A stretch of DNA of 64,000 nt from an uncultured Eubacteriales bacterium (GTDB lineage Bacteria; Bacillota; Clostridia; Oscillospirales; CAG-272): assembly GCA_934474225.1 (NCBI GenBank), contig CAKSLU010000007.1, forward strand, positions 5,755-69,754. Direction: 5' to 3'. Each line of letters begins with the position of its first letter. Within the stretch, counting starts at the first letter, position 1. The notes beneath the pieces were generated by a model. That model saw nothing but the letters and a program-made list of their open reading frames with translations, did not search any database and had not been told where the DNA came from. Shown one piece after another: positions 28,906 through 59,193 of this stretch. The position numbers were made by a program, and so were the translations under genes.

Positions 28906-32127
<3,222 letters not shown>

Positions 32128-38661: not shown

Positions 38662-38699
38662 AGGGAAACGAACCGATACCTGCATGTTTCCGCTATTCC

Positions 38700-38807: not shown

Positions 38808-38813
38808 ATTTTC

Positions 38814-38927: not shown

Positions 38928-38967
38928 TTTTCCCCCCCCACATTTTCTACGAAAGGACGGTGCCCCC

Positions 38968-40038: not shown

Positions 40039-40061
40039 CCTCTGCCGGAAAGGACAAACGA

Positions 40062-40763: not shown

Positions 40764-40775
40764 GGCGGGGCGGCT

Positions 40776-42554: not shown

Positions 42555-42571
42555 AAAATCAATGTATACCG

Positions 42572-42740
42572 GTAGGGGTCGGCGCCTCGACGACCCGCAC
42601 CAACCAAAGCAAAAACGGACCGTCGAGGACGCCGGTCCCTACAAAAGTTACATCGGTACGGTTGCGGGCGACGGGTGGTCGCCCCTACGGTAATGTGGGG
42701 ACTGTGTACACACCGTAGGGCGGGGGCTTGCTCCCGCCGC
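42572..42740. repeat. REP/BIME-like cluster (inverted relative to all other clusters)
   Basis: GTAGGGGTCGGCGCCTCGACGACCCG (42572-42597), CGGACCGTCGAGGACGCCGGTCCCTAC (42616-42642), CGGGCGACGGGTGGTCGCCCCTAC (42665-42688), a 26-nt linker, then GTAGGGCGGGGGCTTGCTCCCGCCGC (42715-42740). Confidence 0.88.
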
Positions 42741-42749
42741 TCTATCTGA

Positions 42750-42947
42750 GCCTCCCCCCCGGCAAAGGGAGGTGTCATGCGAAGCATGACGGAGGGATTG
42801 TTGCATGGCAAAGAAACAACCCCTCAGTCACCTATCGCCAGGATGTTTTTCGGTTTCGCTCGCGAAATCGTCGGTGTTCAGCCGACGAAGAAAAACTCCG
42901 CGAGACGCATCGCGTCTCGTACAGCTCACCCCTTGCACAGGGGAGCC
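42750..42947 (-). repeat. R1 long form in reverse orientation (module X at 42841-42899)
   Basis: The plus strand reads the reverse complement: GCCTCCC..GGGAGGT / ..GGAGGGATTGT..ACAACCCCTCAG / GTCACCTATCGCC / module X rc / CGAGACGCATCGCGTCTCG / GCTCACCCCTTGCACAGGGGAGCC. Confidence 0.88.
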
Positions 42948-42981
42948 GAAATCCCCCACAACATCTGAAAGGAGAACGGCC

Positions 42982-44367
42982 ATGGAAAAATTCAAGACCA
43001 TCCTGCTTGCATGCCTGACCGTTCTCATGCTGACGGCGGCGGGCATCTACATCGGCGGCTCCCAGTTCACGCACACCGGCGCGGCGGCAAGCCGCACGGC
43101 GCTGCCGGACGGCGCGGTGCGTGCCGGGGCGGACGCCCCCGATATGCGCACGCTTGCCGATGCGGGGCTGCTCGCCCCCACCGCCGTGGTTGTTTCCGCT
43201 GCGGGGACGACGGCGGGCGCCTTTGCAGGCGACATCCCGGATACGGTGACGGCGCTTGCCTACCCGCTGATTCACCAGGCGCTTGCCGCCGACGCGACGC
43301 TGACGGCAACCGATTTTGCCGCCGTGACCGCTGCCGCAGCGGGCGACTGCATCTATCTGCAATTTGCGGGCGCACTGCCCTACCAGCTGCTCTATGCGCT
43401 GACCGGCGACATCGAAAAGGCGGCGGCAGCCGACCGCGCGCTAAGCGCCGACACCCTGCTCCTCGCCTTTGACGAGGACGGCACGGGCAGGCTCTATCTC
43501 ACGGACGGCACGAACTGCGCCGCATCGGACAAGCCCGTATCGGTGCGCGCAGGCGCACTCGCGGCGCTGACCGGCAGCGACGCGCTGACCGCGGCATATT
43601 TTGCGGACAACCTTGTCCCCGTCGGGGAAACCGCCGTGACCGCCGCGCCCATCGCCGTCGCGGACGGCACTTCTCACCCCCTGTCTGCCGACGCGGGGCG
43701 TGCGCTGCTCTCGCTCTTCGCCTTCAATCCCGACCGCCACCGGCTGTCTGCGCAGGCCATCGTAGAGCCGCACGGCAGCCTCTCCGTCACCACTGCACGC
43801 ATCGGCTTTGCGGCTTCGCGGGACGGCGGCATCCCGATTGCATCCTTTCTCGAGGGCAAAAAGGACGCGCGCGACATCGGCATCTACGATATTCTCACGG
43901 CAGCAGCGGCGTTTGCCGACCGGCTGCGCGAAATTGACGGCGCGAGTTTCGGCGGCGCAGCAGCGCCGTTTTTGCAGCATTTTTACAAGGACGGCGACGG
44001 CTACACCGTCGCATTCGGTCTGCTCTATGACGGCATTCCGCTCGGCGGCGACGCCGTGCCGGCCTTTCTTTCGCTGACGGCGTCCGGCGGCATGTTCACC
44101 GCCGCAGAGGTCCGTCGCCTCAGCGTCTCGCGCGCCGGGGCGGGGCTGACGCTCTTCCCCGCCGCCTGGCAGTATGCGACCGCGGCGCAAAACGCGGGCG
44201 AAGGCGGGCTGCACAGCCTGCGGCTGCTCTACGCCCCGGACGCGCTCCCGACCGCCGCATGCGATGCGGCATGGTACTGCGACCGCGCTCCCTACACGGC
44301 GGCAAAGGCAGCCGTGCAGATGACCTATGCTATACCGGCAGAGACGGAAAGCGGGGCGGAAAAGTGA
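42982..44367 (+). CDS. Membrane-anchored hypothetical protein (positional analogue of YycH)
   Basis: ATG 42982 follows AAAGGAGAA. One N-terminal TM helix, Ala-rich, 461 aa. It lies downstream of the WalK-like kinase. Confidence 0.6.
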   Translation: MEKFKTILLACLTVLMLTAAGIYIGGSQFTHTGAAASRTALPDGAVRAGADAPDMRTLADAGLLAPTAVVVSAAGTTAGAFAGDIPDTVTALAYPLIHQALAADATLTATDFAAVTAAAAGDCIYLQFAGALPYQLLYALTGDIEKAAAADRALSADTLLLAFDEDGTGRLYLTDGTNCAASDKPVSVRAGALAALTGSDALTAAYFADNLVPVGETAVTAAPIAVADGTSHPLSADAGRALLSLFAFNPDRHRLSAQAIVEPHGSLSVTTARIGFAASRDGGIPIASFLEGKKDARDIGIYDILTAAAAFADRLREIDGASFGGAAAPFLQHFYKDGDGYTVAFGLLYDGIPLGGDAVPAFLSLTASGGMFTAAEVRRLSVSRAGAGLTLFPAAWQYATAAQNAGEGGLHSLRLLYAPDALPTAACDAAWYCDRAPYTAAKAAVQMTYAIPAETESGAEK

Positions 44368-45221
44368 ACTGGAAGTACATCAAGAGTTTTCTCATCCTGC
44401 TTGTCGTCCTTGTAGATATCCTGCTCGTCAAATTCTGCTACGACTACTACATGGCGCGCGAGTTTACCGCGCGCGAGACGGCGGAGGACGCCGTCGCCGT
44501 GCTGCAAGCCGGCGGCATCGAAGTCTCCGCCGACCTGCTTGCCGTGCGGGCGGACAGCGCGCCCGCGCGCCGCTGCGCCTACACGCGCGAGGACTATGCG
44601 CGCCTCGTGTTCGGGATTCTCTGCGGCAAGGACGCGGACGGTTTCTTTCTCCTGCCGGACGGCATCCGCGCCGTGACGGCGGACGGCGATGTCGCCCGCC
44701 TCGGCTACGACTTCTCGCTCGAATTTGTCGCCGCCGGGCGTGACGCCGCCGTTGTCGAGGCGGCGTATGCCAAAGGCTATGCCGCAACATCGGACACCGG
44801 GGCGGTGCGCCACGCGCTGGAGGGGCTTCTCGGGCTGCCCGAGGGCGCGGCAAAGAACTTCCCGGCGACCACCGCCGACGGCTATGTTTTCTTCACGCGC
44901 ACCGCGGCGGCGGACGGTATTCCGCTCGCGCTCGACGACTGCGTGTTCGCCTTTCTCGGCACCGAACTGGTCTACGCGCGCGGCAGTTACCTCTTCCTCG
45001 CCACCGAGGCGGAGGACGCCGAACCTCTTTTGACCCGCATCAATATACTGCTTAGTGAGCGGCGGCGCGGCGCAGTGGGCACTGTGCGCGAAATTTCGCT
45101 CTGCTATGCGCCCTATGAGGACGCCGTGGAGGGAACGCTCTGGCTGTTCCCCGCCTACCGCGTGACCTATGCGGACGGCAGCGTCTCGGTCGTGCAGGCG
45201 CAAAGCGGCGAAAAATATTGA
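44364..45221 (+). CDS. Membrane-anchored hypothetical protein (positional analogue of YycI)
   Basis: GTG 44364 overlaps the preceding stop (GTGA). N-terminal TM helix SFLILLVVLVDILLV; about 285 aa. Confidence 0.55.
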   Translation: MNWKYIKSFLILLVVLVDILLVKFCYDYYMAREFTARETAEDAVAVLQAGGIEVSADLLAVRADSAPARRCAYTREDYARLVFGILCGKDADGFFLLPDGIRAVTADGDVARLGYDFSLEFVAAGRDAAVVEAAYAKGYAATSDTGAVRHALEGLLGLPEGAAKNFPATTADGYVFFTRTAAADGIPLALDDCVFAFLGTELVYARGSYLFLATEAEDAEPLLTRINILLSERRRGAVGTVREISLCYAPYEDAVEGTLWLFPAYRVTYADGSVSVVQAQSGEKY

Positions 45222-45304
45222 CGATGCCCCTGCATTATGGTATACTGAATTGTTGGGCGGAAGCCCTTGTTTGCCCCACCGAATTTTCGAGAGGAATCTG
45301 AGCT

Positions 45305-46558
45305 ATGGACAAAATCATCATCAACGGCGGAACCCCGCTTGTCGGCACAGTCGAGATCAGCGGCGCGAAAAATGCGGCGCTGCCGGTGCTCGTCGGCACG
45401 GTGCTCGTCGGCGACCGCTGCGTCATTGAAAATGTACCCGAGATTCTCGATGTGGACCTGACGCTGGAGATCCTCGAAAAGATGGGCGCCAAGGTCAAGC
45501 GTGACCACACCACGGTGGAAATTGACACGCGCTATGTACAGCCGGGGCGTTCGCCCTACGAGCTGGTCAGCCGCATGCGCGGCTCGACCTACCTCATCGG
45601 CGCGGAACTCGGCAGATTCAATTACGCGCGCGTCGGCTCGCCCGGCGGCTGCGACTTCGGCGTGCGCCCCATCGATCAGCACATCAAGAGTTTTGAGGCG
45701 CTCGGCGCCACGGTTTCGGTGCGGGGCGGCTATGTCGAGGCAAAGGCAGACGCGCTGGTCGCCGCCGAGGTCTATTTTGACATGGTTTCGGTCGGTGCAA
45801 CGGTCAACGCCATCTTAGCATCGGTCTTTGCCGAAGGCACCACCGTGCTTGAAAACGCGGCGCGCGAGCCGCACATCGTCGACCTTGCCAACTTCCTCAA
45901 CACCTGCGGCGCGCGCATTGTCGGCGCGGGCACGGACACCATCAAAATCAAGGGCGTGGAAAAGCTGCACGGCTCGACCTACGCCATCATTCCCGACATG
46001 ATTGAGGCAGGCACTTTCATGTGCGCCGCGGCGGCAACCGGCGGCAATGTCAAAATCAACAATGTCATTCCGAAGCATTTGGATTCCATTTCGGCAAAGC
46101 TCACCGAGATGGGCGTTTTCGTCGAAGAACTGGACGATGCCGTGATCGTGCGCCGCGACGGCGTGATGAAGGGCATCAATGTCAAGACGCAGCCTTACCC
46201 CGGCTTCCCCACGGATATGCAGCCGCAGATGACCGCGCTGCTCTGCTTTGCAGACGGCACAGGCCGCGTGACCGAGGGCGTGTGGGACAACCGCTTCCGC
46301 TATGTGGAGGAGCTGCGCAAGACCGGCGCCGTCATCGACATCGCAGGCAAAACGGCAACCGTCCGCGGCAGCACCGCGCTTGTCGGCGCGCCGATGCGCT
46401 CGGTCGATTTGCGTGCGGGCGCGGCGATGGTCATCATGGGGCTTGCCGCCAGCGGCAGAACCGAGATCACCGACATCCACACCATCGAGCGCGGCTATGA
46501 CAACATCGTCCGCAAGCTCCGCGACCTCGGCGCGGATATCCGCAAAGTATCATACTGA
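45305..46558 (+). CDS. murA: UDP-N-acetylglucosamine 1-carboxyvinyltransferase
   Basis: 417 aa with N-terminus MDKIIINGG..L.G.V.ISGAKNAALP and catalytic loop SPGGCDFGVRPIDQH. Confidence 0.95.
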   Translation: MDKIIINGGTPLVGTVEISGAKNAALPVLVGTVLVGDRCVIENVPEILDVDLTLEILEKMGAKVKRDHTTVEIDTRYVQPGRSPYELVSRMRGSTYLIGAELGRFNYARVGSPGGCDFGVRPIDQHIKSFEALGATVSVRGGYVEAKADALVAAEVYFDMVSVGATVNAILASVFAEGTTVLENAAREPHIVDLANFLNTCGARIVGAGTDTIKIKGVEKLHGSTYAIIPDMIEAGTFMCAAAATGGNVKINNVIPKHLDSISAKLTEMGVFVEELDDAVIVRRDGVMKGINVKTQPYPGFPTDMQPQMTALLCFADGTGRVTEGVWDNRFRYVEELRKTGAVIDIAGKTATVRGSTALVGAPMRSVDLRAGAAMVIMGLAASGRTEITDIHTIERGYDNIVRKLRDLGADIRKVSY

Positions 46559-46573
46559 ATCAGTCGAAAAGAA

Positions 46574-46602
46574 AAAACCGCCGTTCGGCGGTTTTCTTTT
46601 TT
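46574..46602 (+). terminator. Rho-independent terminator of murA
   Basis: Hairpin AAAACCGCC-GTTC-GGCGGTTTT followed by CTTTTTT. Confidence 0.8.
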
Positions 46603-46615
46603 GTATCGGTCATTT

Positions 46616-46787
46616 GCGGCGGGAGACAGACGGCGCCCTACGGTATGTACACGGTTACGGCTATTCCGTAGGGGCGACCATTGGTCGCCCGCTTAACGGG
46701 GTGCGAAAACGGGCGACCAATGGTCGCCCCTACAGGTGTGTGCGCCTTTTGTGCCATCCGGTAGGGGTCGGCGCCCTCGACGACCCG
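46616..46787. repeat. REP/BIME-like cluster with REPIN-like hairpin
   Basis: GCGGCGGGAGACAGACGGCGCCCTAC (46616-46641), a 26-nt linker, GTAGGGGCGACCATTGGTCGCCCG..CGGGCGACCAATGGTCGCCCCTAC (46668-46733), then GTAGGGGTCGGCGCCCTCGACGACCCG (46761-46787). Confidence 0.88.
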
Positions 46788-46836
46788 CCCCAACCAAAGC
46801 AAAACACGGTGTGTGCGTGCCATTCGACTGCCCTGC

Positions 46837-47034
46837 CTAATCCCGCTTATCGGTGCGTTCCAGCAGATAGTCCACGGTCACACCGAAATAATCCGCGATG
46901 CGGCAAAGCTCGGCATAACCAGCCTCATGCGCGCCGGTCTCGTACCGCGAAATCGTATTCTGGCTCATATTCAAATCCAGTCCCAGTTTCAACTGGGTGA
47001 TGCCCCGCTCCCGACGAAGTTCCCGTAAACGCAT
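46837..47034 (-). CDS. XRE-family HTH transcriptional regulator
   Basis: 65 aa: MRLRELRRERGITQLKLGLDLNMSQNTISRYETG...VTVDYLLERTD. ATG 47034 was chosen. Confidence 0.85.
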   Translation of the reverse strand: MRLRELRRERGITQLKLGLDLNMSQNTISRYETGAHEAGYAELCRIADYFGVTVDYLLERTDKRD

Positions 47035-47093
47035 AATCCTTCCTCTCCGCCGCCGCAAGCCACAGCAATTCAAAAATAGTTCTTGACTTTAGT

Positions 47094-47371
47094 GTACCAT
47101 AAGCGATACGAACGCGCAAGCCTGCGGGCGGATATTTTGCGCGCTTTTCGCATTGTCCGCCTCGGAATATCGGTATATTCCGTCGTTGTCCGCAGCAAAA
47201 ATCATCACAAAATCTCTCGCCCGCAGGTGCTACACAGTTTTGACCGAGCGGATTTTTGCCCGGGCGAGAAAAAAGACGCAGGGAATACGCCGGTATTCCG
47301 GGGGTCTTTTGACGATGCACGGACGGAAAGACGCCGGTCAAAACCTTGTGTGTTCGCATCGCTTATGGTAC
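47094..47371. repeat. 27-bp inverted repeat pair flanking an AT-richer non-coding segment
   Basis: GTACCATAAGCGATACGAACGCGCAAG (47094-47120) against the reverse complement of 47345-47371: 24 of 27 positions match. Two GGAATA..TATTCC hairpins lie in the interior (47163-47182 and about 47282-47299). Confidence 0.7.
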
Positions 47372-47483
47372 TCAATTTGGTATACTAAACATATCCCGAA
47401 ATGGTATATATCGCTCGGGGTGCGGATGCCGAACGCTTTTCGATGTTTTGCTTACGGTGATTCCGCACAATTTCCATGCAAAA

Positions 47484-47510
47484 AGGAAGTGCCGCGGCAC
47501 TTCCTTTTTG
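47484..47510. terminator. Bidirectional Rho-independent terminator
   Basis: Hairpin AGGAAGTGCC-GC-GGCACTTCCT flanked by A5 and T5. Confidence 0.7.
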
Positions 47511-47529
47511 CCTTTCCGACGCTGCCCCC

Positions 47530-47558
47530 TTTACAGGATGCCCGAAATGTGATATAAT
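47530..47558 (+). promoter_or_regulatory. SigA promoter (extended -10) of the MBL-fold hydrolase gene
   Basis: TTTACA, 17 nt, then TG-A-TATAAT. Confidence 0.65.
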
Positions 47559-47627
47559 ACTATATTCAGTGAAAATCAACTTTTTTCTATGGAACTTCTG
47601 CGGCAGCTTTTGGACGGGGAGGATAAA

Positions 47628-48504
47628 ATGACCGATTATTACCGCTTCGGCGACGCACAAATCTACCGACTCGTCGAGACGCACGACGCCGGCGACATCA
47701 TCCGGCGCATTGTCCCCGCTATGACGGCGGCGGCGATCCGCCCCTATGCGGCGCGCTTCCCCGCCTGCGCCGACAGCGACGGGCATGTGCTCGCCCCGGT
47801 GCAGAGTTTTCTGCTGCTTGCCGATGGGCGGCGCATCCTCATTGACACCGGCATCGGCAACGGCAAGCCGCTCTGCGGCGACTGGGGCGGTCTTGACACC
47901 GACTGGCTCGACCGTCTGACGGCAGTGGCGCCGCCCGAGACGATTGACACCGTGATCTGCACGCATCTGCACGCCGACCATGTCGGCTGGAACACGCGGC
48001 TGCAAAACGGCGCATGGACGCCGACCTTCCCGCATGCGGCATACGATTTGCCCGCCGGAGACCTTGCCGACCTGCGTGCCCGCCTGCCGGAACTTTCCCC
48101 GGACGATGTCTGCGTGCTGCGCGATTCGATCGCGCCCGTGCTGACAGCCGGAGCGGCAGTCCCCGTGCCGGACGGCGAACGGGCAATTACCGACACGGTG
48201 TCCCTCGTCCCGACGCCGGGACACACGCCGCACCACCTCGCCGTGCGCGTCACGGCGGGCGGGCGCGCCCTGCTGTTCTGCGGCGATCTTTTCTACCATG
48301 TCTGTCAGGCGGAACACCCCGCGTGGGGTGCGGAAGAAAACCCGCTGCTGCTGGCCACGCGCCTGCGCGTGCTGGACGAGGCGGCGGCGCACGGCAGCCT
48401 GCTTTTCTTCGGTCACATGCCCTATCCGCTGCGCATCACGGCGGATGCGGACGGATACACGGCACATCCCGTGTGCAAAACGAACCTCTTGAAAGGAGAC
48501 AACG

Positions 48505-48515
<11 letters not shown>
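47628..48515 (+). CDS. MBL-fold metallo-hydrolase
   Basis: HxHxDH motif ([11 protein letters not shown]). ATG 47628 follows GGGGAGG. ATG 47589 in the ORF track lacks an RBS. Confidence 0.85.
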
Positions 48516-50471
<1,956 letters not shown>

Positions 50472-50472
<1 letters not shown>

Positions 50473-50694
50473 TTTTCGGCTCCCCTGTGCAAATTTTCGG
50501 CTCCCCTGTGCAAGGGGTGAGCTGTACGAGACGCGATGCGTCTCGCGGAGTTTTTCTTCGTCGGCTGAACACCGACGATTTCGCGAGCGAAACCGAAAAA
50601 CATCCTGGCGATAGCCGTCTGAGGGGTTGTTCCGTGGCTCTGTAACAATCCCTCCGTCGCCGTTCGGCGACACCTCCCTTTGCACAAGGGAGGC
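50472..50694 (+). repeat. R1 long form (50499-50694, module X 50547-50605) preceded by a perfect 21-nt tandem duplication of its 5' end
   Basis: ATTTTCGGCTCCCCTGTGCAA occurs at 50472-50492 and again at 50493-50513. The first copy starts within the uvrB stop codon. Confidence 0.9.
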
Positions 50695-50703
50695 TCAGAT
50701 AGA

Positions 50704-50819
50704 GCGGCGGGAGCAGACGGCGCCCTACGGTGTGTGCACAGTTCCCCTCATTTCGTAGGGGCGACCATTGGTCGCCCGCCTATACAAAGCGGAAACGGGC
50801 GACCAATGGTCGCCCCTAC
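50704..50819. repeat. REP-like doublet plus REPIN-like hairpin
   Basis: GCGGCGGGAGCAGACGGCGCCCTAC (50704-50728), a 26-nt linker, then GTAGGGGCGACCATTGGTCGCCCG..CGGGCGACCAATGGTCGCCCCTAC (50755-50819). Confidence 0.88.
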
Positions 50820-50889
50820 AGTTTTGCAATTCATTCATTTTCGCATCCCATTTCACTCCCCCTACTTTTTCACATGAAAGGGTATTACC

Positions 50890-53724
50890 ATGGCAAAGGA
50901 TATCATCATCAAAGGCGCGCGGGTCAACAACCTCAAGAACATTGACCTCACGATTCCGCGCGACAAACTGACCGTGCTGACCGGCCTCTCGGGCAGCGGC
51001 AAATCCTCACTGGCGTTTGACACGCTCTACGCCGAGGGTCACCGCCGCTTTGTCGAGTCGCTGTCCTCCTACGCGCGGCAGTTCCTCGGGCAGATGGACA
51101 AGCCCGACGTCGACTCGATTGAGGGGCTGTCCCCCGCAATCGCCATCGACCAGAAGACCACCTCGAAAAACCCGCGCTCAACTGTGGGCACGGTCACCGA
51201 AATCTACGACTACCTGCGCCTCTTATACGCGCGCTGCGGCGTACCGCACTGCCCGGTCTGCGGCAAGGAAATCAAGCAGCAGACCGTGGACTCCATCATC
51301 GACAGCATCCTTGCGATGCCGGAAGGCACGCGCTTTATGGTGCTCGCCCCCATCGTGCGAAACGCCAAGGGCACGCACGAAAAGGTGCTTGCCGACGCGC
51401 GGCGCAGCGGCTATGCCCGCGTGCGCGTGGACGGCAGCCTCTACGACCTCACGGAGACCATTTCGCTTGACAAAAACCTCAAGCACACGGTCGAAATCGT
51501 GGTGGACCGCCTCATTTGCCGCCCCGACGCGCACACCCGCATCGGCGACTCGGTGGAGACCGCCGTCGCCCTGACCGACGGGCTTGTGCGCATCGTGACC
51601 GTGCCGCGCGAGGAAGGCACCGCCGAGGAGGAGCGCGACTATTCGCTCAAATACGCCTGCGAGGAACACGGCATCAGCTTCGGCGAGCTGGAACCCCGCA
51701 TGTTCTCGTTCAACGCGCCGGACGGCGCCTGCCCGCGCTGCGCGGGACTGGGCGCGCTGACCCGCGTCTCCGAGAAAAAGCTCATGCCCGACAAGAGCCT
51801 GTCCCTGCGCGAGGGCGGCATCGCCTGCAACGGGTTCAAGACGCTCGAGGAGGAGAGCTGGAACGGCCCGCTGATTGAAGCCGTGGGCAAAAAATTCGGC
51901 TTCACGATGGATTTGCCGCTGGAAAAATACACCCGCACTGCGATGAGCGCGCTGCTCTACGGCACGGGCAGGGAAACCTACACGATTACGCGCTATTTCG
52001 GCGGCACGGCGCACCACCAGACCACGACCTTTGAGGGCATCATCCCGATGATTGACCGCCGCCGCGAATCCTACGGGCAGGAATACTACGACAGCCTGCT
52101 TGAGGAGCAGGTCTGCCCCGAATGCGGCGGCGGCCGTCTGAACAAAATGATGCTGGCGGTCACGGTGGGCGGCAAGAACATCTACGAGCTTTGCCTGATG
52201 CCGATTGACAAGATGCTCGACTTTGTCACAAAACTGGAACTGGACAACGAGCACCGCCAGATTGCCGCCGAAATCGTCAAGGAGATCCGCGCGCGCCTCG
52301 GCTTTCTCGTCAGCGTGGGCCTCGAATACCTGAACCTCGCGCGCCGCGCGGGCACGCTCTCGGGCGGCGAGGCGCAGCGCATCCGCCTGGCGACGCAGAT
52401 TGGCTCGTCGCTCGTCGGCGTGCTCTACATCCTCGACGAGCCGAGCATCGGTCTGCACCAGCGCGACAACGACAAGCTGATTGCCACGCTGAAAAAGCTG
52501 CGCGACCTCGGCAACACGGTGGTCGTCGTCGAGCACGACGAGGACACCATGCGCGCCGCGGATTATCTCGTGGACATCGGCCCCGGCGCGGGCATCCACG
52601 GCGGCTACATCTGCGCGGCGGGCACGCCCGCCGAGGTGGCGAAGAACAAGAAGTCCATCACCGGCGACTACCTTGCCGGACGGCGGAAAATCGAAGTCCC
52701 CGCCGCCCGCAGACCGGGCAACGGCGCGTTTCTGACCGTGCACGGCGCGCGGGAGCACAACCTCAAAAACATTGATGTCACCTTCCCGCTCGGCAAGTTC
52801 ATCGCCGTCACCGGCGTCTCGGGCAGCGGCAAGTCCTCGCTTATCAATTCGGTGCTCTATGAGAGCCTCGCCGCCACGCTGAACCGCGCGGTCACCTTCC
52901 CCGGCGAGCACGACAGCATCGAAGGCGTCGGCGCGCTGGACAAGGTCATCGCCATCGACCAGAGCCCCATCGGGCGCACGCCGCGCTCCAACCCCGCGAC
53001 TTACACCGGCGTGTTCTCCGAGATTCGCGAGTTGTTTGCCAAGACCCGCGAGGCGAAGGCGCGCGGCTACAAGGCGGGGCGCTTCTCGTTCAACACCAAG
53101 GGCGGCAGATGCGAAGCCTGCGAGGGCGACGGCGTGAAGTGCATCGAGATGCACTTTCTGCCCGATGTGTATGTCAAGTGCGACGTCTGCGGCGGCAGAC
53201 GGTACAACCGCGAGACGCTCGAGGTGCACTACAAGGAAAAGAACATCTACGAGGTGCTGGAGATGACCGTGGAGGAGGGCGTCGAGTTCTTCTCGGGTGT
53301 CCCCTCGGTCAAGCGCAAGCTGCAGACGCTCTGCGATGTCGGGCTCGGCTATGTCAAAATCGGGCAGTCCTCCACCACGCTCTCGGGCGGCGAAGCGCAG
53401 CGCGTGAAGCTGGCGACCGAGCTTGCCCGCCGCTCCACCGGGCGCACGGTCTACATCCTCGATGAGCCGACCACGGGTCTGCACAGTGAGGATGTGGCAA
53501 AGCTGATTGCGGTGCTCAACCGCCTCGTGGACGCGGGCAACACCGTCATTGTCATCGAGCACAACCTCGACATGATCAAGGTTGCCGACCACATCATCGA
53601 CCTCGGCCCGGAGGGCGGCGAAGGCGGTGGCAGAATCGTCGCCGAAGGCACGCCCGAGGAAGTCGCCGAAGTCGAGGGGTCTTATACGGGGCAATATCTG
53701 CGGAGCAAGCTTGCAGAGAAGTGA
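50890..53724 (+). CDS. uvrA: excinuclease ABC subunit A
   Basis: 944 aa with two ABC modules (GLSGSGKSS and GVSGSGKSS), LSGGE signatures and CxxC zinc modules. Confidence 0.96.
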
Positions 53725-53747
53725 GGGAAGAAGAGGCAGTCCGCCTG

Positions 53748-53824
53748 CCGCTATTCCGTAGGGGCGACCATTGGTCGCCCGTCCGTACCTAAGCGTTAAG
53801 CGGGCGATGGGTGGTCGCCCCTAC
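53748..53824. repeat. REPIN-like hairpin; copy 1 of a 77-nt perfect direct repeat
   Basis: CCGCTATTCCGTAGGGGCGACCATTGGTCGCCCGTCCGTACCTAAGCGTTAAGCGGGCGATGGGTGGTCGCCCCTAC is identical to 54078-54154. Confidence 0.92.
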
Positions 53825-53843
53825 AAAGTCAGTGCGTGCTTTC

Positions 53844-54029
53844 GGCTCCCCTGTGTAAGGGGAGCTGTACGAGACGCAAAGCGTTTCTTAGGCTTCCCCA
53901 ATGGGGAAGCTGTCGCCGTAGGCGACTGATGAGGGATTGATGAAAGCCAAACACCGCGCCATGCTGTGCCGGCTGCCTGCATGCCCTCATCCACCGCTAA
54001 CGCGGTCCCCCTTCCCCACCGGGGAAGGC
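53844..54029 (+). repeat. Partial long-form 5' segment (53844-53890) fused to a full R1 subtype c (53891-54029)
   Basis: GGCTCCCCTGTGTAAGGGGAGCTGTACGAGACGCAAAGCGTTTCTTA, then GGCTTCCCCAATGGGGAAGC / GTCGCCGTAGGCGAC / GATGAGGG..CCCTCATC / CCGCTAACGCGG / CCTTCCCCACCGGGGAAGG. Confidence 0.88.
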
Positions 54030-54035
54030 TTGGTT

Positions 54036-54154
54036 GCGGCGGGAGCAAGCCCCCGCCCTACGGTGTGTACACATTTTCCGCTATTCCGTAGGGGCGACCA
54101 TTGGTCGCCCGTCCGTACCTAAGCGTTAAGCGGGCGATGGGTGGTCGCCCCTAC
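54036..54154. repeat. REP-like doublet; contains copy 2 of the 77-nt direct repeat
   Basis: GCGGCGGGAGCAAGCCCCCGCCCTAC (54036-54061), a 26-nt linker, then the REPIN-like hairpin at 54088-54154. Confidence 0.9.
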
Positions 54155-54181
54155 GGGTTTGTTCGACTTTTATGCAATCCG

Positions 54182-54289
54182 GTAGGGGGCATGGCGACCG
54201 GAACGCAAGCGTTCCTCAGGAGTTTTTCTTCGTCGGCTGAACACCGACGATTTCGCTACGCGAAACCGAAAAACATCCTCGACGACCCG
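54182..54289. repeat. REP unit interrupted by inserted hairpin plus module X
   Basis: GTAGGGG | GCATGGCGACC GGAACGCAAGCGTTCC .. module X (54219-54278) | TCGACGACCCG. The two outer parts equal the ends of the intact unit GTAGGGGTCGGCGCCCTCGACGACCCG. Confidence 0.8.
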
Positions 54290-54346
54290 TTTTGCCTTGG
54301 TGGATGCTGGGTTTGTGCGCGTTCCTGCCACATCCCCCATTCCACG

Positions 54347-54382
54347 CAAAAAGCCGCGCGCCAGCAGGCGCGCGGCTTTTTT
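54347..54382 (-). terminator. Rho-independent (bidirectional) terminator after the THUMP methyltransferase gene
   Basis: Hairpin AGCCGCGCGCC-(AGC)-GGCGCGCGGCT flanked by A5 and T6, adjacent to the stop codon at 54384. Confidence 0.8.
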
Positions 54383-54383
54383 C

Positions 54384-55514
54384 TCACCCCTCGGGGCGGT
54401 CAAACTTGAAATACTGGTAGAGATAGCACGGAATCATGCCGTTGTAGAGCTTGCGCACCTTGTCGGCGCGTCTGCCGTACAGCCGCTCAAACCGCTCACT
54501 GGAAGTCAGAATATAGACCTGCCAGGGTTCGAGCGAACGGAAATGCTGCCCCATGCGGGCATAGAGCCGCTCCACCTCGTCGGCGCTGCCCATGCGCTCG
54601 CCATACGGCGGGTTGCAGACGATCGTGCCGCGCCGCCCGCCCGTGCGGATGGTGCAGGCGTCGGCAACGAAGGTCTTGACCACATCCGAGACGCCCGCGC
54701 GCGCCGCATTGTCGGCGGCAAGTTGCACCATCTCGGGGTCGATGTCCGACGCATACGCCTCAAAAGCGGTCGGGCGGATCGCCGCCTTCGCCTCGGCGCG
54801 CGCCTCTGCCCAAAGCTCGGGCGGGGCGACGGCAAATTCCTCCGCGGCAAAGCGGCGGAACAGCCCGGGCGCCTGATTTTTCATAATCATCGCCGCCTCG
54901 ATGGCAATCGTGCCGCTGCCGCAGAACGGGTCCCACAGCAGCACATTCTCGCGCGGGCGGGAATTGAGCGCCAGCGCCGCCGCCAGCGTCTCGCGCAGGG
55001 GCGCAGCCCCCGCAATGGCGCGGTACCCGCGCTTGTGCAGCGGCACGCCCGATGTGTCAATCATCAGCGTGGCGACATCCTTCAGAATAAAGAATTCAAT
55101 CTGATATTTCGTCTTGCTCTCGGGGAACCAGCACATGCCGTACTCGTTGTCCAGCCGCTTGGCGACCGCCTTTTTCACGATGCTTTGGCAGTCGGGAATC
55201 GAGAACAGCTTGCTCTTCACCGCGTGCCCCTTGACCGGGAAGGCGTCCTCCCGCCCGATGAAGCGCTCCCATTCGATGGCTTTTGTCCCCTCAAACAGCT
55301 CGCCGAAGGTGCGCGCGCGAAAACTCCCCATCTTGATATACAGCCGCTCGGCGCAGCGCAGATTGATGTTGCAGCGGGCTATCGCCGCCTCGTCGCCGAT
55401 AAAGCTGACTCTGCCGTCAATCGTCTCGGTGCGGCGATAGCCGAGGCGGTCGATTTCCTCGCCGAGGAAATGCTCAAGCCCGAACAGGCAGGTTGCTACA
55501 AATTCGATAACCAT
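54384..55514 (-). CDS. THUMP-domain class I SAM-dependent RNA methyltransferase (RlmL/YpsC-like)
   Basis: 376 aa with an N-terminal THUMP region and methyltransferase motifs DPFCGSGT and NPPYG. Confidence 0.85.
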   Translation of the reverse strand: MVIEFVATCLFGLEHFLGEEIDRLGYRRTETIDGRVSFIGDEAAIARCNINLRCAERLYIKMGSFRARTFGELFEGTKAIEWERFIGREDAFPVKGHAVKSKLFSIPDCQSIVKKAVAKRLDNEYGMCWFPESKTKYQIEFFILKDVATLMIDTSGVPLHKRGYRAIAGAAPLRETLAAALALNSRPRENVLLWDPFCGSGTIAIEAAMIMKNQAPGLFRRFAAEEFAVAPPELWAEARAEAKAAIRPTAFEAYASDIDPEMVQLAADNAARAGVSDVVKTFVADACTIRTGGRRGTIVCNPPYGERMGSADEVERLYARMGQHFRSLEPWQVYILTSSERFERLYGRRADKVRKLYNGMIPCYLYQYFKFDRPEG

Positions 55515-55589
55515 TGTTTATGACGCCGCTCCGGCTTTCCGCATCTGCCGGCGACGGCGCACCCTCCAAACTTCCTCTTTTTTGCGGCA

Positions 55590-56036
55590 TTACGGCTTCT
55601 TGTTCAGCCGCTCCAACTCTTCCATAAAGGTCGCCACATCCTTAAACTCGCGGTACACCGAGGCGAAGCGCACATAGGAGACCGCGTCCAGCGCCTTGAG
55701 CTTGTCCATGATGATTTCGCCGATTTCGGTGGTCGTGATTTCGGCGCGCAGAGAGTTTTGCAGCTCGCTCTCGATCTCGCGGGCCAGTGCGGCGGTGTCC
55801 ACCGGGCGCTTCTGGCACGCCTTCATCAGCCCGCTCTCCAACTTCATGCGGTCGAAAAACTCCTTTGAGCCGTCCTTTTTGATGACGACAAGCTGCACCG
55901 AATCAATCACCTCATAGGTTGTGAAACGGCGGCGGCAGGACAGGCATTCGCGGCGACGGCGGATGCTCGTGTTGTCGCCGACGGGGCGGGAATCAATGAC
56001 CTTGCTCTCCGCAAAGCCGCAGTTGGGACATTTCAT
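55590..56036 (-). CDS. nrdR: transcriptional repressor NrdR
   Basis: Zinc ribbon MKCPNCG...[12 protein letters not shown] followed by an ATP-cone. ATG 56036 follows GGAG. Confidence 0.95.
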
Positions 56037-56054
56037 GGAGTTTCTCCTATAAAA

Positions 56055-56070
56055 ACACAATATATAGTGT
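56055..56070. promoter_or_regulatory. NrdR box (16-bp palindrome) in the nrdR leader
   Basis: Minus strand reads ACACTATATATTGTGT, matching the NrdR-box consensus acaCwAtATaTwGtgt. A degenerate second box (56086-56101) starts 31 bp away, the canonical spacing. Confidence 0.7.
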
Positions 56071-56074
56071 TTTT

Positions 56075-56104
56075 ATTATAGCATAGTCCCTATATCCTTG
56101 TAAA
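56075..56104 (-). promoter_or_regulatory. Candidate SigA promoter of nrdR
   Basis: Minus strand reads TTTACA, 18 nt, then TG-C-TATAAT. The NrdR box lies just downstream of the -10 box. Confidence 0.55.
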
Positions 56105-56124
56105 TAGGAAATGCAAAAAAACTG

Positions 56125-56153
56125 TTGACAAATGCGCGCATCTGTGTTATAAT
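56125..56153 (+). promoter_or_regulatory. Consensus SigA promoter of tRNA-Pro
   Basis: TTGACA, 17 nt, then TG-T-TATAAT. The -10 box ends about 26 nt upstream of the tRNA 5' end. Confidence 0.8.
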
Positions 56154-56179
56154 AATCAGCGCTGAAAAGAAATCAGCAT

Positions 56180-56256
56180 CGGGATGTAGCACAGCTTGGT
56201 AGTGCGCTTGGTTCGGGACCAAGAGGTCGGGTGTTCGAATCACCTCATTCCGACCA
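56180..56256 (+). tRNA. tRNA-Pro (anticodon CGG), CCA encoded
   Basis: Manual cloverleaf: acceptor CGGGATG/CATTCCG, D arm GCAC/GTGC, anticodon stem CTTGG/CCAAG with loop TTCGGGA, T arm GGGTG-TTCGAAT-CACCT, discriminator A, then CCA. Confidence 0.9.
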
Positions 56257-56260
56257 AAAA

Positions 56261-56291
56261 AAGAAGACGCCGTGTGCGTCTTCTTTTTTTT
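56261..56291 (+). terminator. Rho-independent terminator after tRNA-Pro
   Basis: Hairpin GAAGACGC-CGTGT-GCGTCTTC followed by T8. Confidence 0.85.
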
Positions 56292-56308
56292 GCGTTCGGG
56301 GTGCTATG

Positions 56309-56439
56309 TGCTCCCCTGTGTAAGGGGAGCTGTCACCGTAGGTGACTGAGGGGTTGTTTTTTGCCTTTCAATCATCTTTTACCATGCAACAATCCCTCCG
56401 GCATGCTTTGCATGCCACCTCCCTTTACACAAGGGAGGC
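56309..56439 (+). repeat. R1 five-hairpin element, subtype a (enlarged H3 loop)
   Basis: TGCTCCCCTGTGTAAGGGGAGC / GTCACCGTAGGTGAC / GAGGGGTTGT..(about 38 nt)..ACAATCCCTC / GGCATGCTTTGCATGCC / CCTCCCTTTACACAAGGGAGG. Confidence 0.88.
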
Positions 56440-56443
56440 GAAT

Positions 56444-56469
56444 GCGGCGGGAGCGAGCCCCCGCCCTAC
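56444..56469 (-). repeat. Single REP-like unit
   Basis: The plus strand reads GCGGCGGGAGCGAGCCCCCGCCCTAC, followed by the usual GGTGTGTGCGC linker start. Confidence 0.85.
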
Positions 56470-56501
56470 GGTGTGTGCGCGAATTTTTGCCTCCCCGCAC
56501 G

Positions 56502-56529
56502 CAAAAACCGCCCTGCTGTGCAGGACGGT
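56502..56529 (-). terminator. Rho-independent terminator of the SLH surface protein gene
   Basis: Minus strand reads ACCGTCCTG-CACAG-CAGGGCGGT followed by T5, about 20 nt after the stop. Confidence 0.65.
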
Positions 56530-56548
56530 TTTTATCTTTACATTGCGG

Positions 56549-58879
56549 TCAGTTGCGGATGGGAACCAGGTCGCGGGCGACGATGTACTGCTTCTGTCCC
56601 GTGTAGTAGTTGATAACGGGGCAATAGGTGTACGGCATATTGTTGTTGATCTCCGGCTCGTCCATGTAGACGCCCAGACGCTTGCCGAGTGCCCAGATGA
56701 TGGTGCCCTCACGCGGCGTTGCGCCGACATTGGTGCCCATGACGGGCAGCGTCAGGAAGTCCGTTATATCATTGCCCTTCGCATCATCGAAATCAACCTG
56801 GCACCAGCCGATCTGATGCGCGTAAACACTGCGTTCCGCCACGGCAATCGCCTGCTCGATGGTGCACTTGTTGTTCGGCGAGAGCGTGGTGTCCGATGTG
56901 CCCTTGATGAGGTCAAGCGCGTTCATAAACGCCATGGATTCCTCTGCCCAACTTGCGAGCTGCCCCTTGTCCGTGTAATTGGACAGCTTCGAGGTGTAGC
57001 TCGTGTAGCTGTAGTCGGAGTTCTTCTCGATGTAGCGCAGGGTGCGGTAGAGGAAGGTCGCCATCTGCTGGCGGTTGAGCGTGGCATCGGGGGAGAAGGT
57101 GGTCGCCGATGTGCCGGAGGTGAGACCCGCGGCATACGCCTTGAGGACATAGGAATTGCTTGTGTCCGTGAAGGTATTCGCGGCGGCGGGAGTAATGCTC
57201 TTGCCGGTCATCTCCTCGGCGAGGCGCACCACCACGGAGCAGAACTGCAGGCGTGAGATGTTCTTCGTGTAGTCATTGCCGAGCAAATCAAGGTCCAGCA
57301 GGTTGTCGTTGAGCGCGAAGTTGACATCGCTCTGCGCCCAGGTGCTGGTCTTGGCGGTATTGCGGAGGCGAAGCGTGAACATGCCCGCCTGATCCTCGGT
57401 GCTGCTGAGCGCAAGCGTCTCCCGCATCTGCAGCGCGGCGTTGACCTCTGCCTGATAGTGTTCCAGTGTGCTGTCGTTGCCGCTGAGTTTGAGATCCTTC
57501 TCGGTCAGATGCTGCTGCAAATAGCGGTCGGATCTGCCGCAGACATCGCAGCTGAGCCAGTAGACATGCATACCCGCCGCATTGACGCCGACATACGCCT
57601 GATCGGTGGCAAGTTCGTCGTACAGCGTGGCGTGGGTAAACTCCATCAGCTTCTCAATCGGCTTTGCCTTGAAGTTTGCGGAGACATGATTCGGATTATA
57701 CTCGCATTTGCCGCAGATGCTGCAGGAGTAATACCACCGCGGAGCGGTCTGGCAGTTCGCAAAGGTGTAGACGCGGTCGGCAGACCGGATCTGATGAGTG
57801 TAGACATGCCCGGGGCACCAGTCCTTTGTGGCGGCAGCGCCGCCTGCCTTCTGTGCGGCATAGACATCATTGCCCGAATACACCTTGATGCTATAGGGAA
57901 TGGAATAACCGCGCCCCTCCGTCATTTTTTTCGCAAATTCAGCCACGGAGGACTCGGGGATGTACAAAGTCGCATCGGTCGTGCAGAACTGGAGGTCGCT
58001 GCGGCTTTCCCAAAGCGGCGAATGAAACACCGGGTCGTGCAGCTCACCGTCCATGCGACCGACGAAGGTGTAGACATCCACCTTGTCGCTCAGCCAGATC
58101 TCATTCAGATAGGGCTTCCACACAATGACCCAGGCAAAGCCGTTTGCGCATTCGTGGTTGTAGAAGTCGCTGTCGTCCACATCCATGATGAGCGTGCCGA
58201 CGTCGTCATATGCGTCGAGCGTGGCGAAGTTATAGCCCTCGCCGCGGTGTTCTCTGTCCATAACAACCACGGTTTTGCCCTTGTTTTCAGGATTTTTCGC
58301 ATCCGCCTCTGCCTGCGTGCGTGCCGGATAGACGGCGCGGCGCGCCTTAGCCAACGCGGCGGCGGTCTTCGCCTGCTCGGCGGCAAGCTCGGCGCGTTCT
58401 GTGTCGGTCATGCGCTCGCCCTCGATGGTCAGGCTGACCTGCAGGGTGGGAAAATACGGCGCGCTGGTGCGCACCGTGGCAGGTTTGCCGTTGACCGTGG
58501 CAGTGAAGGTTTCCGCCGTCACGACCGTGTCGCCCATGAGTGTCTTGTAGTTGGCGCAATAGCCCTTCGTCGTGTCAAAGGCGAGTTTGACATTGACGAG
58601 ATAGGTCGTGCCGGCGCGGAAGAGGAAGTCGTCCTCGGTCTCCACATCGTCGCCCGCCCACTCGGTGTACATAATGGTAGCACCGGCAGCCATCAAATCA
58701 ATGTCGCCGCTCTTGATGGAGCGGACAGTGACTTCGGTCTCCATTTCGCGGGAGTCGCCCGCCTTCGGCAAATCGAAGACAATATCGACATGCTTGAGCG
58801 GCGTTGCGGCAAACGCCGCCACGGACAAAAGGGCGGCAACAATCGCCGCGCAAAACAGGAAGGATAAGCGTTTCTTCAT
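56549..58879 (-). CDS. Secreted SLH-domain surface protein of unknown function
   Basis: 776 aa with signal peptide MKKRLSFLFCAAIVAALLSVAAFA and a central Cys-rich region (CQTAPRWYYSCSICGKCEYNPNH; SCDVCGRS). SLH-like repeats lie near the C-terminus (FTDTSNSYVLKAYAAGLTSG..F.P, YTDKGQLASWAEESMAFMNALDLIKG). Confidence 0.8.
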   Translation of the reverse strand: MKKRLSFLFCAAIVAALLSVAAFAATPLKHVDIVFDLPKAGDSREMETEVTVRSIKSGDIDLMAAGATIMYTEWAGDDVETEDDFLFRAGTTYLVNVKLAFDTTKGYCANYKTLMGDTVVTAETFTATVNGKPATVRTSAPYFPTLQVSLTIEGERMTDTERAELAAEQAKTAAALAKARRAVYPARTQAEADAKNPENKGKTVVVMDREHRGEGYNFATLDAYDDVGTLIMDVDDSDFYNHECANGFAWVIVWKPYLNEIWLSDKVDVYTFVGRMDGELHDPVFHSPLWESRSDLQFCTTDATLYIPESSVAEFAKKMTEGRGYSIPYSIKVYSGNDVYAAQKAGGAAATKDWCPGHVYTHQIRSADRVYTFANCQTAPRWYYSCSICGKCEYNPNHVSANFKAKPIEKLMEFTHATLYDELATDQAYVGVNAAGMHVYWLSCDVCGRSDRYLQQHLTEKDLKLSGNDSTLEHYQAEVNAALQMRETLALSSTEDQAGMFTLRLRNTAKTSTWAQSDVNFALNDNLLDLDLLGNDYTKNISRLQFCSVVVRLAEEMTGKSITPAAANTFTDTSNSYVLKAYAAGLTSGTSATTFSPDATLNRQQMATFLYRTLRYIEKNSDYSYTSYTSKLSNYTDKGQLASWAEESMAFMNALDLIKGTSDTTLSPNNKCTIEQAIAVAERSVYAHQIGWCQVDFDDAKGNDITDFLTLPVMGTNVGATPREGTIIWALGKRLGVYMDEPEINNNMPYTYCPVINYYTGQKQYIVARDLVPIRN

Positions 58880-59015: not shown

Positions 59016-59165
59016 GTCTATTTTAGGCTTCCCCATTGGGGGAAGGCTTGGATGCGGGGGAGACAGACGGCGCCCTACGGTGTGTGCGCATCTTTCGCCA
59101 TTCTGTAGGGACCGGCGTCCCCGACGGTCCGATTTGCTTTGATGGGTGCGGACCGCCCCAGACGC
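59016..59165. repeat. Orphan c-type hairpin plus REP-like doublet with REPIN-like hairpin
   Basis: GGCTTCCCCATTGGGGGAAGGC (about 59016-59039). GCGGGGGAGACAGACGGCGCCCTAC (59044-59068), a 26-nt linker, then GTAGGGACCGGCGTCCCCGACGGTCCG..GCGGACCGCCCCAGACGCCGGTCCCTAC (59095-59165). Confidence 0.85.
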
Positions 59166-59193
59166 CGGTCCCTACAAAGTTTGTGCGTGATTT

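Follow-up and report, generated by a model that had tools for sequence, protein, structure and literature searches.

The DNA analysed here is a 64,000-nucleotide stretch (the window; contig CAKSLU010000007.1 of assembly GCA_934474225.1, positions 5,755 to 69,754) from an uncultured gut bacterium, and it carries a genuine system of repetitive extragenic palindromes (REPs), REP doublets forming hairpins (REPINs) and bacterial interspersed mosaic elements (BIMEs), for which a cognate clade of REP-associated tyrosine transposases (RAYTs) is demonstrated in relatives. It is probable that the GTAGGG-headed units of the window are REP elements organised in REPIN-like doublets and BIME-like mosaics, that they belong to a superfamily of gut clostridia and that their cognate enzyme is a clostridial RAYT (TnpA_REP) clade closest to subclass 2.4. 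This reading rests on the anatomy of the repeats, the covariation of their stems, the class-specific association of RAYT genes with units in relatives and the gain, loss and turnover of units at strain level, each of which is observed directly. A first-pass annotation had already proposed elements of the REP/REPIN/BIME kind, and their structural hallmarks are all present: the 5' GTAG is left unpaired, the stem is rich in G+C and ends in a GG..CC foot, inverted doublets fold into long hairpins, and the mosaics are ordered and have fixed linkers. The description of the genome as Clostridia-type in that annotation also agrees with the housekeeping proteins, which place the host in an uncultured Oscillospiraceae or 'Clostridiales bacterium' metagenome-assembled genome species that is prevalent in the gut.

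In the window, which has a G+C content of ∼62%, the two strands together contain the hexamer GTAGGG 59 times, where 11.3 would be expected from 100 dinucleotide-preserving shuffles of the 64 kb, none of which exceeded 18. Forty-two of these sites belong to a class (16 to A, 5 to B, 7 to C, 9 to D and 5 to D') and all 42 are intergenic; the other 17 are mostly intragenic, lack a class hairpin and are near chance in number. Class A reads GTAGGGGCGACCATTGGTCGCCCG (its count takes in the variant GCGATTCAYGAATCGC), class B GTAGGGGTCGGCGCCCTCGACGACCCG, class C GTAGGGACCGGCGTCCYCGACGGTCCG, class D GTAGGGCGGGGGCTYGCTCCCGCCGC and class D' GTAGGGCGCCGTCTG(T)CTCCCGCCGC. Full-length units with at most three mismatches number 12 for A, 8 for D and 8 for B/C, where 0.00 are expected for each. 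The unit length of 24–27 nt falls in the 20–40-nt range of REPs, the density is ∼0.66 units per kb and many copies are perfect. A search of Rfam at the gathering threshold with the window and six related loci matched only a tRNA-Pro, leaving the units without a family.

Folded as single-stranded DNA (ssDNA), units of classes A, B, C and D leave the GTAG unpaired and form a stem from position 5 onwards; the stem is 8–9 bp long in A, B and C (z-scores of −6.0, −3.1 and −3.4), and D has a weaker value of −1.6. The A/A doublet at 50755–50819 folds as a single long hairpin both as RNA (−53.1 kcal/mol, z = −11.0) and as DNA (−33, z = −10.7). Classes B and C have the same architecture, including a conserved G.A mismatch, and are distinguished by two compensatory pairs, and the arms of B(+) and C(−) can pair mutually through G.T wobbles. 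When the window and related loci are taken together, 28 distinct unit types of 24 nt can be compared; in these, standard pairs occupy 97.8% of the stem cells, a percentage inflated by types that had been chosen by hairpin detection, compared with 78% in shuffles and 35–50% in register-shifted controls. Compensatory changes are seen at five of the eight stem pairs, the non-Watson–Crick cells are G.T on the GTAG-bearing strand, and the GTAG head is invariant. The four palindromic classes recognised in the first-pass annotation are upheld for A, B, C and D, whereas its fourth class was heterogeneous, because it mixed D, which folds, with the non-palindromic D' (GTAGGGCGCCGTCTG..), which forms no hairpin (z = 0.06). 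D' has lost the 5' arm of the D stem; it still recurs five times and keeps both the 5' flank of D and the place of D in the mosaic. As intrinsic terminators the units were discarded: no unit or doublet is among 28 terminator-like sites at 38000–57000, in a scan of loops of 3–8 nt that places doublets beyond its reach, and canonical terminator-like hairpins adjoin the units, for example at 46574–46595.

The geometry of the clusters is regular. Ten tail-to-tail, REPIN-like doublets span 65–71 nt, of which six are A/A, one is C/C and three are mixed (A'/C at 3058–3126, B/C at 8367–8437 and B/C at 42572–42642). There are 14 head-to-head pairs, with linkers of 26–27 nt in 11 cases, 40 nt in two and 21 nt in one. 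Every unit type has its own 5' flank of ∼10 nt, which is TGYRCACACC-GTAGGG at D and D' and CCGCTATTCC- or YGCAMAMCY- at the other units, so that each linker is made up of two facing 5' flanks. The recurrent order is D(−), 26–27 nt, A(+)A(−), 27 nt and B or C(+), with or without C(−), and is inverted once, at 42572–42740. By gene calls based on G+C at third codon positions, eight of the 14 clusters lie between tandem genes, five between convergent genes and one between divergent genes; 13 of them are downstream of at least one gene, and units occur in both orientations relative to transcription. A CRISPR-like or tandem array is ruled out by this geometry, the units being inverted rather than direct and the spacers being linkers of 17–27 nt. 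Much of this layout had been anticipated: the first-pass annotation placed a mosaic at 50704–50819, where D'(−), a 26-nt linker, A(+), a 17-nt spacer and A(−) are indeed read. Six of its seven same-class hairpins are exact and the seventh lies at 59105–59175 instead of 59095–59165. Its 12 head-to-head doublets, nine of them with 26–27-nt linkers, become 14 and 11, while the two of 40 nt and the one of 21 nt stand. The GGTGTGYRCAC with which it had the linkers begin is exact in only four and one mismatch off in three more, and it is the reverse complement of the conserved D/D' flank, to which it belongs.

A cognate enzyme was sought among relatives. Six-frame open reading frames (ORFs) of loci chosen by unit A alone were screened with E. 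coli RayT (from NC_000913), and six proved homologous to it (phmmer, E-values down to 1e-10) and to be Y1/HUH genes. They score 58–75 bits with the NCBIfam model REP_Tyr_transpos (NF047646) and 17–22 bits with the IS200 model, and are borderline for Pfam Y1_Tnp. Against the Protein Data Bank (PDB), the sole sequence match of the family profile is 4ER8 (E = 5.7e-9), the structure of E. coli TnpA_REP bound to a REP hairpin. An AlphaFold model (pLDDT 75.5, pTM 0.72) has Y1/HUH transposases as all of its top 30 Foldseek matches (2xma, 2vic and others) and superposes best on 4ER8 (TM 0.56, root-mean-square deviation 2.0 Å, 143 columns). Sequence identity between the clostridial and E. coli enzymes is only ∼22%. 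Little or no variation is seen in the motifs NH[IV]H, WQ and Y(I)xxNP, and the proteins are 160–180 residues long and have no tail. Judged by profile scores, PDB match, superposition and motifs, the clostridial proteins are RAYTs rather than IS200 transposases at the level of predicted function, and motifs, length and absence of a tail would fit a clade closest to TnpA_REP subclass 2.4 (Bertels group 4). The protein collection holds 1456–2635 word-sharing relatives, some of them named 'REP element-mobilizing transposase RayT' or 'transposase [Oscillospiraceae bacterium]'. The family is present in at least 590 species-level genomes (590 confirmed of the 600 pattern matches listed, in genome contigs), and the best 80 of these are nearly all Clostridia, including Gemmiger formicilis, Faecousia, Acutalibacteraceae, Oscillospiraceae, Ruminococcaceae and Christensenellales.

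The most unusual feature of the system lies outside the window and is a conserved, class-matching pair of in-frame REPs around the HuH motif of the RAYT. In all six RayT homologues found with unit A, that unit is in frame inside the ORF; its reverse complement encodes GRPMVAPT just after the HuH motif (MPNHVHLL), and VGASIARP, which precedes the motif, is encoded by a second, oppositely oriented unit. Both peptides form low-confidence loops in the model, and E. coli RayT is gapped at both places. The statistics on in-gene and flanking units rest on the best 80 of at least 590 loci (L131–L210). About 70 of these 80 RAYT genes carry exactly two GTAGGG hairpins in frame (examples are 10136–10159 and 10309–10332 in L131, and 10109 and 10296 in L210), and both hairpins are of one type in 59 of 69 genes, where permutation gives a mean of 8 and a maximum of 18. 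Units lie within 1 kb of the gene at 37 of the 80 loci, and in 26 of these 37 a flanking unit has the in-gene type, at no more than one mismatch in 14 nt (null mean 3.0, maximum 9). L171, L147, L210 and L208 are REPtron-like, with the gene flanked by its own class.

The classes of the window recur among these genes. A-type RAYT genes include L133, L140, L155 and L199, among others; the in-gene unit of L187 is identical to D of the window and those of L192 and L210 are a close variant; and L208, L180, L193 and L185 are B/C-like, L208 also having a B unit identical to that of the window 330 nt downstream of its RAYT gene. The codons within the in-gene units are all but fixed, with GTA for Val in 44/44 genes (24% elsewhere in those genes), GGG for Gly in 43/44 (17%) and CCT for Pro in 44/44 (24%). 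Since synonymous sites are fixed in such a way that the head is kept, the in-gene segments are constrained as DNA, beyond the peptide. The two in-gene positions are kept across 37–97% protein identity, while the two units switch class in concert with one another and with the dispersed units. The check proposed with the first-pass annotation, for a Y1 transposase or RAYT flanked by the units, is positive when run on relatives, where the clostridial RAYT family both carries and adjoins the same classes. Tentatively, a RAYT gene carrying its own substrates might be a master copy or source of new REP classes, or else a self-targeted autoregulatory substrate; the classes of the window might then correspond to three or four RAYT paralogues, in a self-referential REPIN–RAYT system of very high density in abundant human gut Firmicutes. 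We regard this extended proposal as possible rather than probable.

Comparison of close relatives, which were reached through the response regulator and a 65-residue helix-turn-helix (HTH) protein of the window (exact look-ups of its UvrA and UvrB gave no record), reveals turnover of the units. Over 30062–50472 of the window, a conspecific contig (L211 = L215) shows 99.5% identity, and its uvrB–uvrA spacer measures 88 nt compared with 417 nt in the window. The mosaic at 50473–50859, including 50704–50819, is missing from this strain, which has a 38-nt segment with a simple hairpin instead; the units are therefore not strictly vertically conserved. Across ten syntenic loci, at 93.5–97.6% identity of coding sequence, four orthologous spacers are empty or differently filled (Table 1). 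The cluster at 42572–42740 is absent from five relatives, which have a spacer of 65 nt, and that at 46616–46787 from four. Orthologous sites are thus polymorphic among relatives 93.5–99.5% identical, and the strict vertical conservation that the first-pass annotation would have counted against mobilisation was not found. At the uvrB|uvrA site, D' of the window is allelic with a head-mutated D in L216. Within the window, 53748–53824 and 54078–54154 are identical 77-nt copies (10-nt flank, A/A doublet and spacer) lying 330 nt from one another, a sign of duplication or transposition in the very recent past.

A mechanism can be proposed by analogy with the chemistry of E. coli TnpA_REP (4ER8) and IS200/IS605 (PMC6006769). 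The GTAG-bearing strand would fold when single-stranded, and the RAYT would recognise GTAG together with the stem, cleave nearby through a 5'-phosphotyrosine intermediate and rejoin the DNA. In this way intergenic DNA, chiefly downstream of genes and at or beside terminator hairpins, could receive copied or exchanged doublets together with their ∼10-nt 5' flanks. Catalysis on the units, a cleavage site close to them and an active RAYT in this genome would be expected on the same analogy.

Several observations weigh against the proposed REP–RAYT system. When the 80 RAYT proteins were compared with the window by tblastn, only the REP-encoded peptides matched, so that the 64 kb contain neither a RAYT gene nor a remnant of one. 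RAYTs of the Gemmiger, B/C and A/A types used as homology queries gave none tied to the window species, and no match of these searches has precisely the peptides that the B, C or D units of the window would encode. The RAYT scores lie under the curated NCBIfam cut-off of 80 bits. D' recurs without folding, and the paired percentage in the covariation set is inflated, as described above. Filled alleles replace 28–41 nt of the empty allele, including a hairpin, so that these are no clean insertions. Moreover, identity falls from 99.5% to 95.7% beyond the uvrB|uvrA junction (window 50472/50860, L211 20411/20470), and because of this drop import by homologous recombination could also explain the polymorphism; inter-strain recombination may contribute to the filled and empty states. 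The earlier proposal of RAYT mobilisation is consequently only partly supported: a cognate RAYT clade in relatives and polymorphic sites speak for it, while no RAYT is found in the window or assigned to the species.

Some of these points would also be accounted for if the units were relict or domesticated REPs whose ancestral RAYT had been lost, persisting in structural or regulatory roles at the DNA or RNA level (stabilising mRNA 3' ends, standing in for terminators or binding proteins), with strain differences due to homologous recombination and deletion. The lack of a RAYT found for the window species, the location of 13 of 14 clusters downstream of genes, the replacement of a terminator-like hairpin of the empty alleles and the recombination-like identity break at the polymorphic site are all consistent with this, and genomes with REPs and without tnpA_REP are on record (Quentin 2018, PMC6006769). 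However, the same site holds different combinations of units in relatives 2–6% diverged, identical doublets lie 330 nt apart, and the density of 0.66 units per kb comes with many perfect copies. The missing RAYT itself counts for little, given that the view was confined to the best 80 of at least 590 genome matches, and we regard relict REPs as unlikely. Still less probable is that the GTAGGG hairpins are modules of composite miniature inverted-repeat transposable elements (MITEs) moved by another transposase (examples would be an IS200/IS605 TnpA, or a DDE enzyme that uses terminal inverted repeats), with an incidental link to RAYT. Units are embedded in longer mosaics (∼290 nt at 88.6%, 42664–42951 compared with 50495–50779), and a ∼190-nt element bounded by terminal inverted repeats carries a unit pair at unrelated sites in 46 of 128 loci. 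But units also occur alone or as bare doublets (21232–21255 and 56444–56469; B+/A− in L212), the match between in-gene and flanking classes and the fixed GTA, GGG and CCT codons tie them to RAYT, and no other transposase gene was noticed beside them, though no systematic search was made. That the units are purely RNA-level elements (intrinsic terminators, attenuators or small RNAs), spread by selection and not by mobility, is most improbable. They are intergenic, downstream of genes and able to form very stable RNA hairpins; yet they have no Rfam match, none was called an intrinsic terminator, separate canonical terminators adjoin them (as at 46574–46595), they take both orientations relative to transcription, and the same units are in frame inside RAYT genes. 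The REP–RAYT system proposed here remains the probable explanation of the units.

Table 1. Class units and clusters of the window (positions in the window), and allelic states of four orthologous spacers among relatives (d, D'; x, unclassified GTAGGG site)
Feature	Position	Strand	Composition or remark
D' unit GTAGGGCGCCGTCTGCTCCCGCCGC, 5' flank TGCACACACC	50704–50728	−	Non-folding variant of class D
Head-to-head linker GGTGTGTGCACAGTTCCCCTCATTTC, 26 nt	50729–50754	.	Two 5' flanks face to face
A unit GTAGGGGCGACCATTGGTCGCCCG	50755–50778	+	GTAG, 8-bp stem, 3-nt loop; ssDNA z = −6.0
Doublet spacer (loop), 17 nt, variable	50779–50795	.	
A unit, inverted partner	50796–50819	−	Doublet 50755–50819 = one long hairpin
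Cluster	2992–3126		D'(−) 2992–3017, 40-nt linker, A'(+) 3058–3081, C(−) 3100–3126
Cluster	8320–8437		D(−) 8320–8345, 21-nt linker, B(+) 8367–8393, C(−) 8411–8437; B/C wobble doublet
Cluster	16065–16197		D(−) 16065–16091, 40-nt linker, A(+) 16132–16155, A(−) 16174–16197
Cluster	17816–17895		D'(−) 17816–17841, 27-nt linker, B(+) 17869–17895
Cluster	20449–20524		D(−) 20449–20474, 26-nt linker, A'(+) 20501–20524 (GCGATTCATGAATCGC variant)
Solitary A unit	21232–21255	−	
Cluster	32260–32457		D(−) 32260–32285, D(−) 32379–32404, 26-nt linker, C(+) 32431–32457
Cluster	34804–34882		D(−) 34804–34829, 27-nt linker, B(+) 34857–34882; sole cluster between divergent genes
Cluster	38700–38808		A(+) 38700–38723, A(−) 38742–38765, 27-nt linker, C(+) from 38793 truncated by other repeat module
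Cluster, inverted order	42572–42740		B(+) 42572–42597, C(−) 42616–42642, A(−) 42665–42688, 26-nt linker, D(+) 42715–42740
Cluster	46616–46787		D'(−) 46616–46641, 26 nt, A(+) 46668–46691, A(−) 46710–46733, 27 nt, B(+) 46761–46787
Cluster	53758–54190		A(+)A(−) 53758–53824, D(−) 54036–54061, 26 nt, A(+)A(−) 54088–54154, 27 nt, truncated head 54182
Solitary D unit	56444–56469	−	Downstream of tRNA-Pro
Cluster	59053–59175		D'(−) 59053–59078, 26 nt, C(+) 59105–59131, C(−) 59149–59175; C/C doublet, DNA z = −6.7
Spacer HK (histidine kinase) / next gene			Empty 65 nt; filled [B+ C− A− D+], [B+ C− A−], [x+ A+]
Spacer murA / HTH			Empty 191 nt; filled [d− A+ A− B+], [d− A+ A−], [A+ A− x+ A−]
Spacer uvrB / uvrA			Empty 88–105 nt; filled [d− A+ A−], [D− A+ A−], [B+ A−], [A+ A−]
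Spacer uvrA / rlmL			Empty 287 nt; filled [A+ A− A−], [A+ A− D− A+ A−]

Beyond the window, the exact 24-mer of unit A is found in eight viral contigs and at least 120 metagenome stretches, mostly from the human gut. Unit A is not species-specific, since these many contigs range from 35 to 65% G+C. The neighbouring copies in unit-A loci constitute a superfamily in which the head (GTAGGGGC) and the tail (CCCG) are fixed and the stems co-vary. In about one in three unit-A loci (46/128) the match is due to the ∼190-nt MITE-like element, which has inverted-repeat ends (CAGACYGTCRAAAAA...TTTTTCGACAGTCTG) and contains unit A, a spacer of ∼56 nt and an inverted GCGAGC-type unit. It occupies unrelated sites in contigs of 48–65% G+C (L001, L005, L007, L011, L015, L017, L019 and L020 are examples) and is not present in the window; host sequence is duplicated at both of its ends in L019 and L020. 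An origin as a deletion derivative of a RAYT gene was considered and dropped, its flanks and spacer having no obvious homology by eye. The densest arrangement seen is different again: the whole 20-kb locus L159 (Bacillota bacterium S31_Bin1) holds 18.6 GTAGGG hairpins per 10 kb in at least ten stem classes, some of them in same-orientation tandem runs with a period of ∼70 nt (19327–20050), and no dispersed unit there matches the in-gene type of the local RAYT.

A second composite family of multi-hairpin repeats adjoins the REP clusters of the window, at 50473–50703, 42741–42951 (inverted), 9390–9610, 59181–59347, 31966–32108 and 54190–54283. Its modules comprise ggctcccctgtgcaaggggagc, gtcggctgaacaccgacgatttcgc, cctccctttgcacaagggagg and also cgagacgcgatgcgtctcg, which resembles a terminator and precedes a T-run, and the ∼290 nt common to 42664–42951 and 50495–50779 are in inverted orientation. 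In the HK|g461 spacer of L213 and L217, a repeat of ∼100 nt (..ggcgaccggaacgcaagcgttcctcagg..gtcggctgaacaccgacgatttcgc..) splits a B unit between its 5' and 3' arms; the same module truncates a unit head at 54182 of the window (54182–54190), and a different one, ggctcccctgtgtaaggggagc, truncates the C unit at 38793 (38793–38808). This suggests insertion targeted to REP hairpins. Some insertion sequence (IS) elements target the REP hairpins of E. coli BIMEs. Elsewhere in the window, a perfect sigma-70-like promoter (TTGACA, 17 nt, TATAAT and an upstream TG) lies in 56125–56256, directly upstream of tRNA-Pro(CGG) at 56180–56256.

Our results extend REP/REPIN–RAYT systems, so far characterised almost only in Proteobacteria, to common gut Firmicutes. 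They document several REP/BIME classes at high density in an uncultured Oscillospiraceae that is prevalent in the gut, together with a cognate RAYT clade spread over at least 590 species, most of them clostridial. A survey of GTAG-REPs covers Proteobacteria, Cyanobacteria, Chloroflexi and the PVC (Planctomycetes–Verrucomicrobia–Chlamydiae) group and no Firmicutes (PMC3733652), RAYT surveys mention Clostridia for group 1 (subclass 2.1 of Quentin) only, a class without REP association (PMC5581495, PMC6006769), and no description of a REPIN–RAYT system in gut Clostridia was found by full-text searches. The repeats also have practical consequences, as they break metagenome assemblies (most RAYT contigs are 1–3 kb) and give rise to spurious 'hypothetical proteins'; since even strains of 99.5% identity can be told apart by them, they might be used as strain markers. 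The system offers a Gram-positive model, with a RAYT gene that reports its class, for the co-evolution of REPIN populations and their enzymes.

The REP/BIME system of E. coli with its RAYT (YafM, 4ER8) is similar in its unpaired 5' GTAG, its imperfect G+C-rich hairpin, the several unit types per genome, the alternating orientation with linkers of fixed length, the extragenic location downstream of genes and the wobble-related partner arms (B/C here, Y/Z in E. coli). Its enzyme is likewise of the monomer-type Y1/HUH kind, and the clostridial fold matches 4ER8 best. The present system differs in its Gram-positive gut Oscillospiraceae host, in the GTAGGG head with a conserved ∼10-nt 5' flank, in the higher density (0.66 per kb), in a divergent RAYT (∼22% identity) with two extra loops encoded by REP units, and in that no REPtron is seen within the 64-kb window. 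With the REPIN–RAYT systems of Pseudomonas and Enterobacteria (Bertels and Rainey) it has in common inverted REP doublets that fold as one hairpin (65–71 nt here), populations of copies that are nearly identical, orthologous sites that are occupied in some genomes and empty in others, and a RAYT specific to the unit class. Those systems use RAYT groups 2 and 3 in Proteobacteria, whereas in the present one units of several classes are interspersed within ordered mosaics, and some doublets combine two classes. IS200/IS605 elements and their palindrome-associated transposable element (PATE) and MITE derivatives likewise use Y1/HUH chemistry on ssDNA hairpins, to which the Foldseek matches 2xma, 2vic and others correspond. 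Here, however, there is no element bounded by tnpA/tnpB with left-end and right-end hairpins, and the protein fits the RAYT model better than the IS200 model.

The closest resemblance is to subclass 2.4 (Quentin et al. 2018; RAYT group 4 of Bertels et al. 2017), with which the clostridial proteins share the NH[IFV]H / WQ / YIxNNP motifs, the absence of a C-terminal tail, an 8-residue insert and an insert between β3 (HuH) and the next helix, and the units share the 'long' REP form with three G–C pairs at the foot of the stem and the in-frame location in the gene. For that subclass, REPs 'inserted in tnpAREP' and the three-G–C stem foot have been described; it is plentiful among Cyanobacteria and the Bacteroidetes and scattered elsewhere, and its in-gene insertions are 'highly variable in length and sequence' (PMC6006769). 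By contrast, the clostridial clade, found in at least 590 species, has two fixed insertion sites that bracket the HuH motif, each holding one unit in inverted orientation that matches the flanking class.

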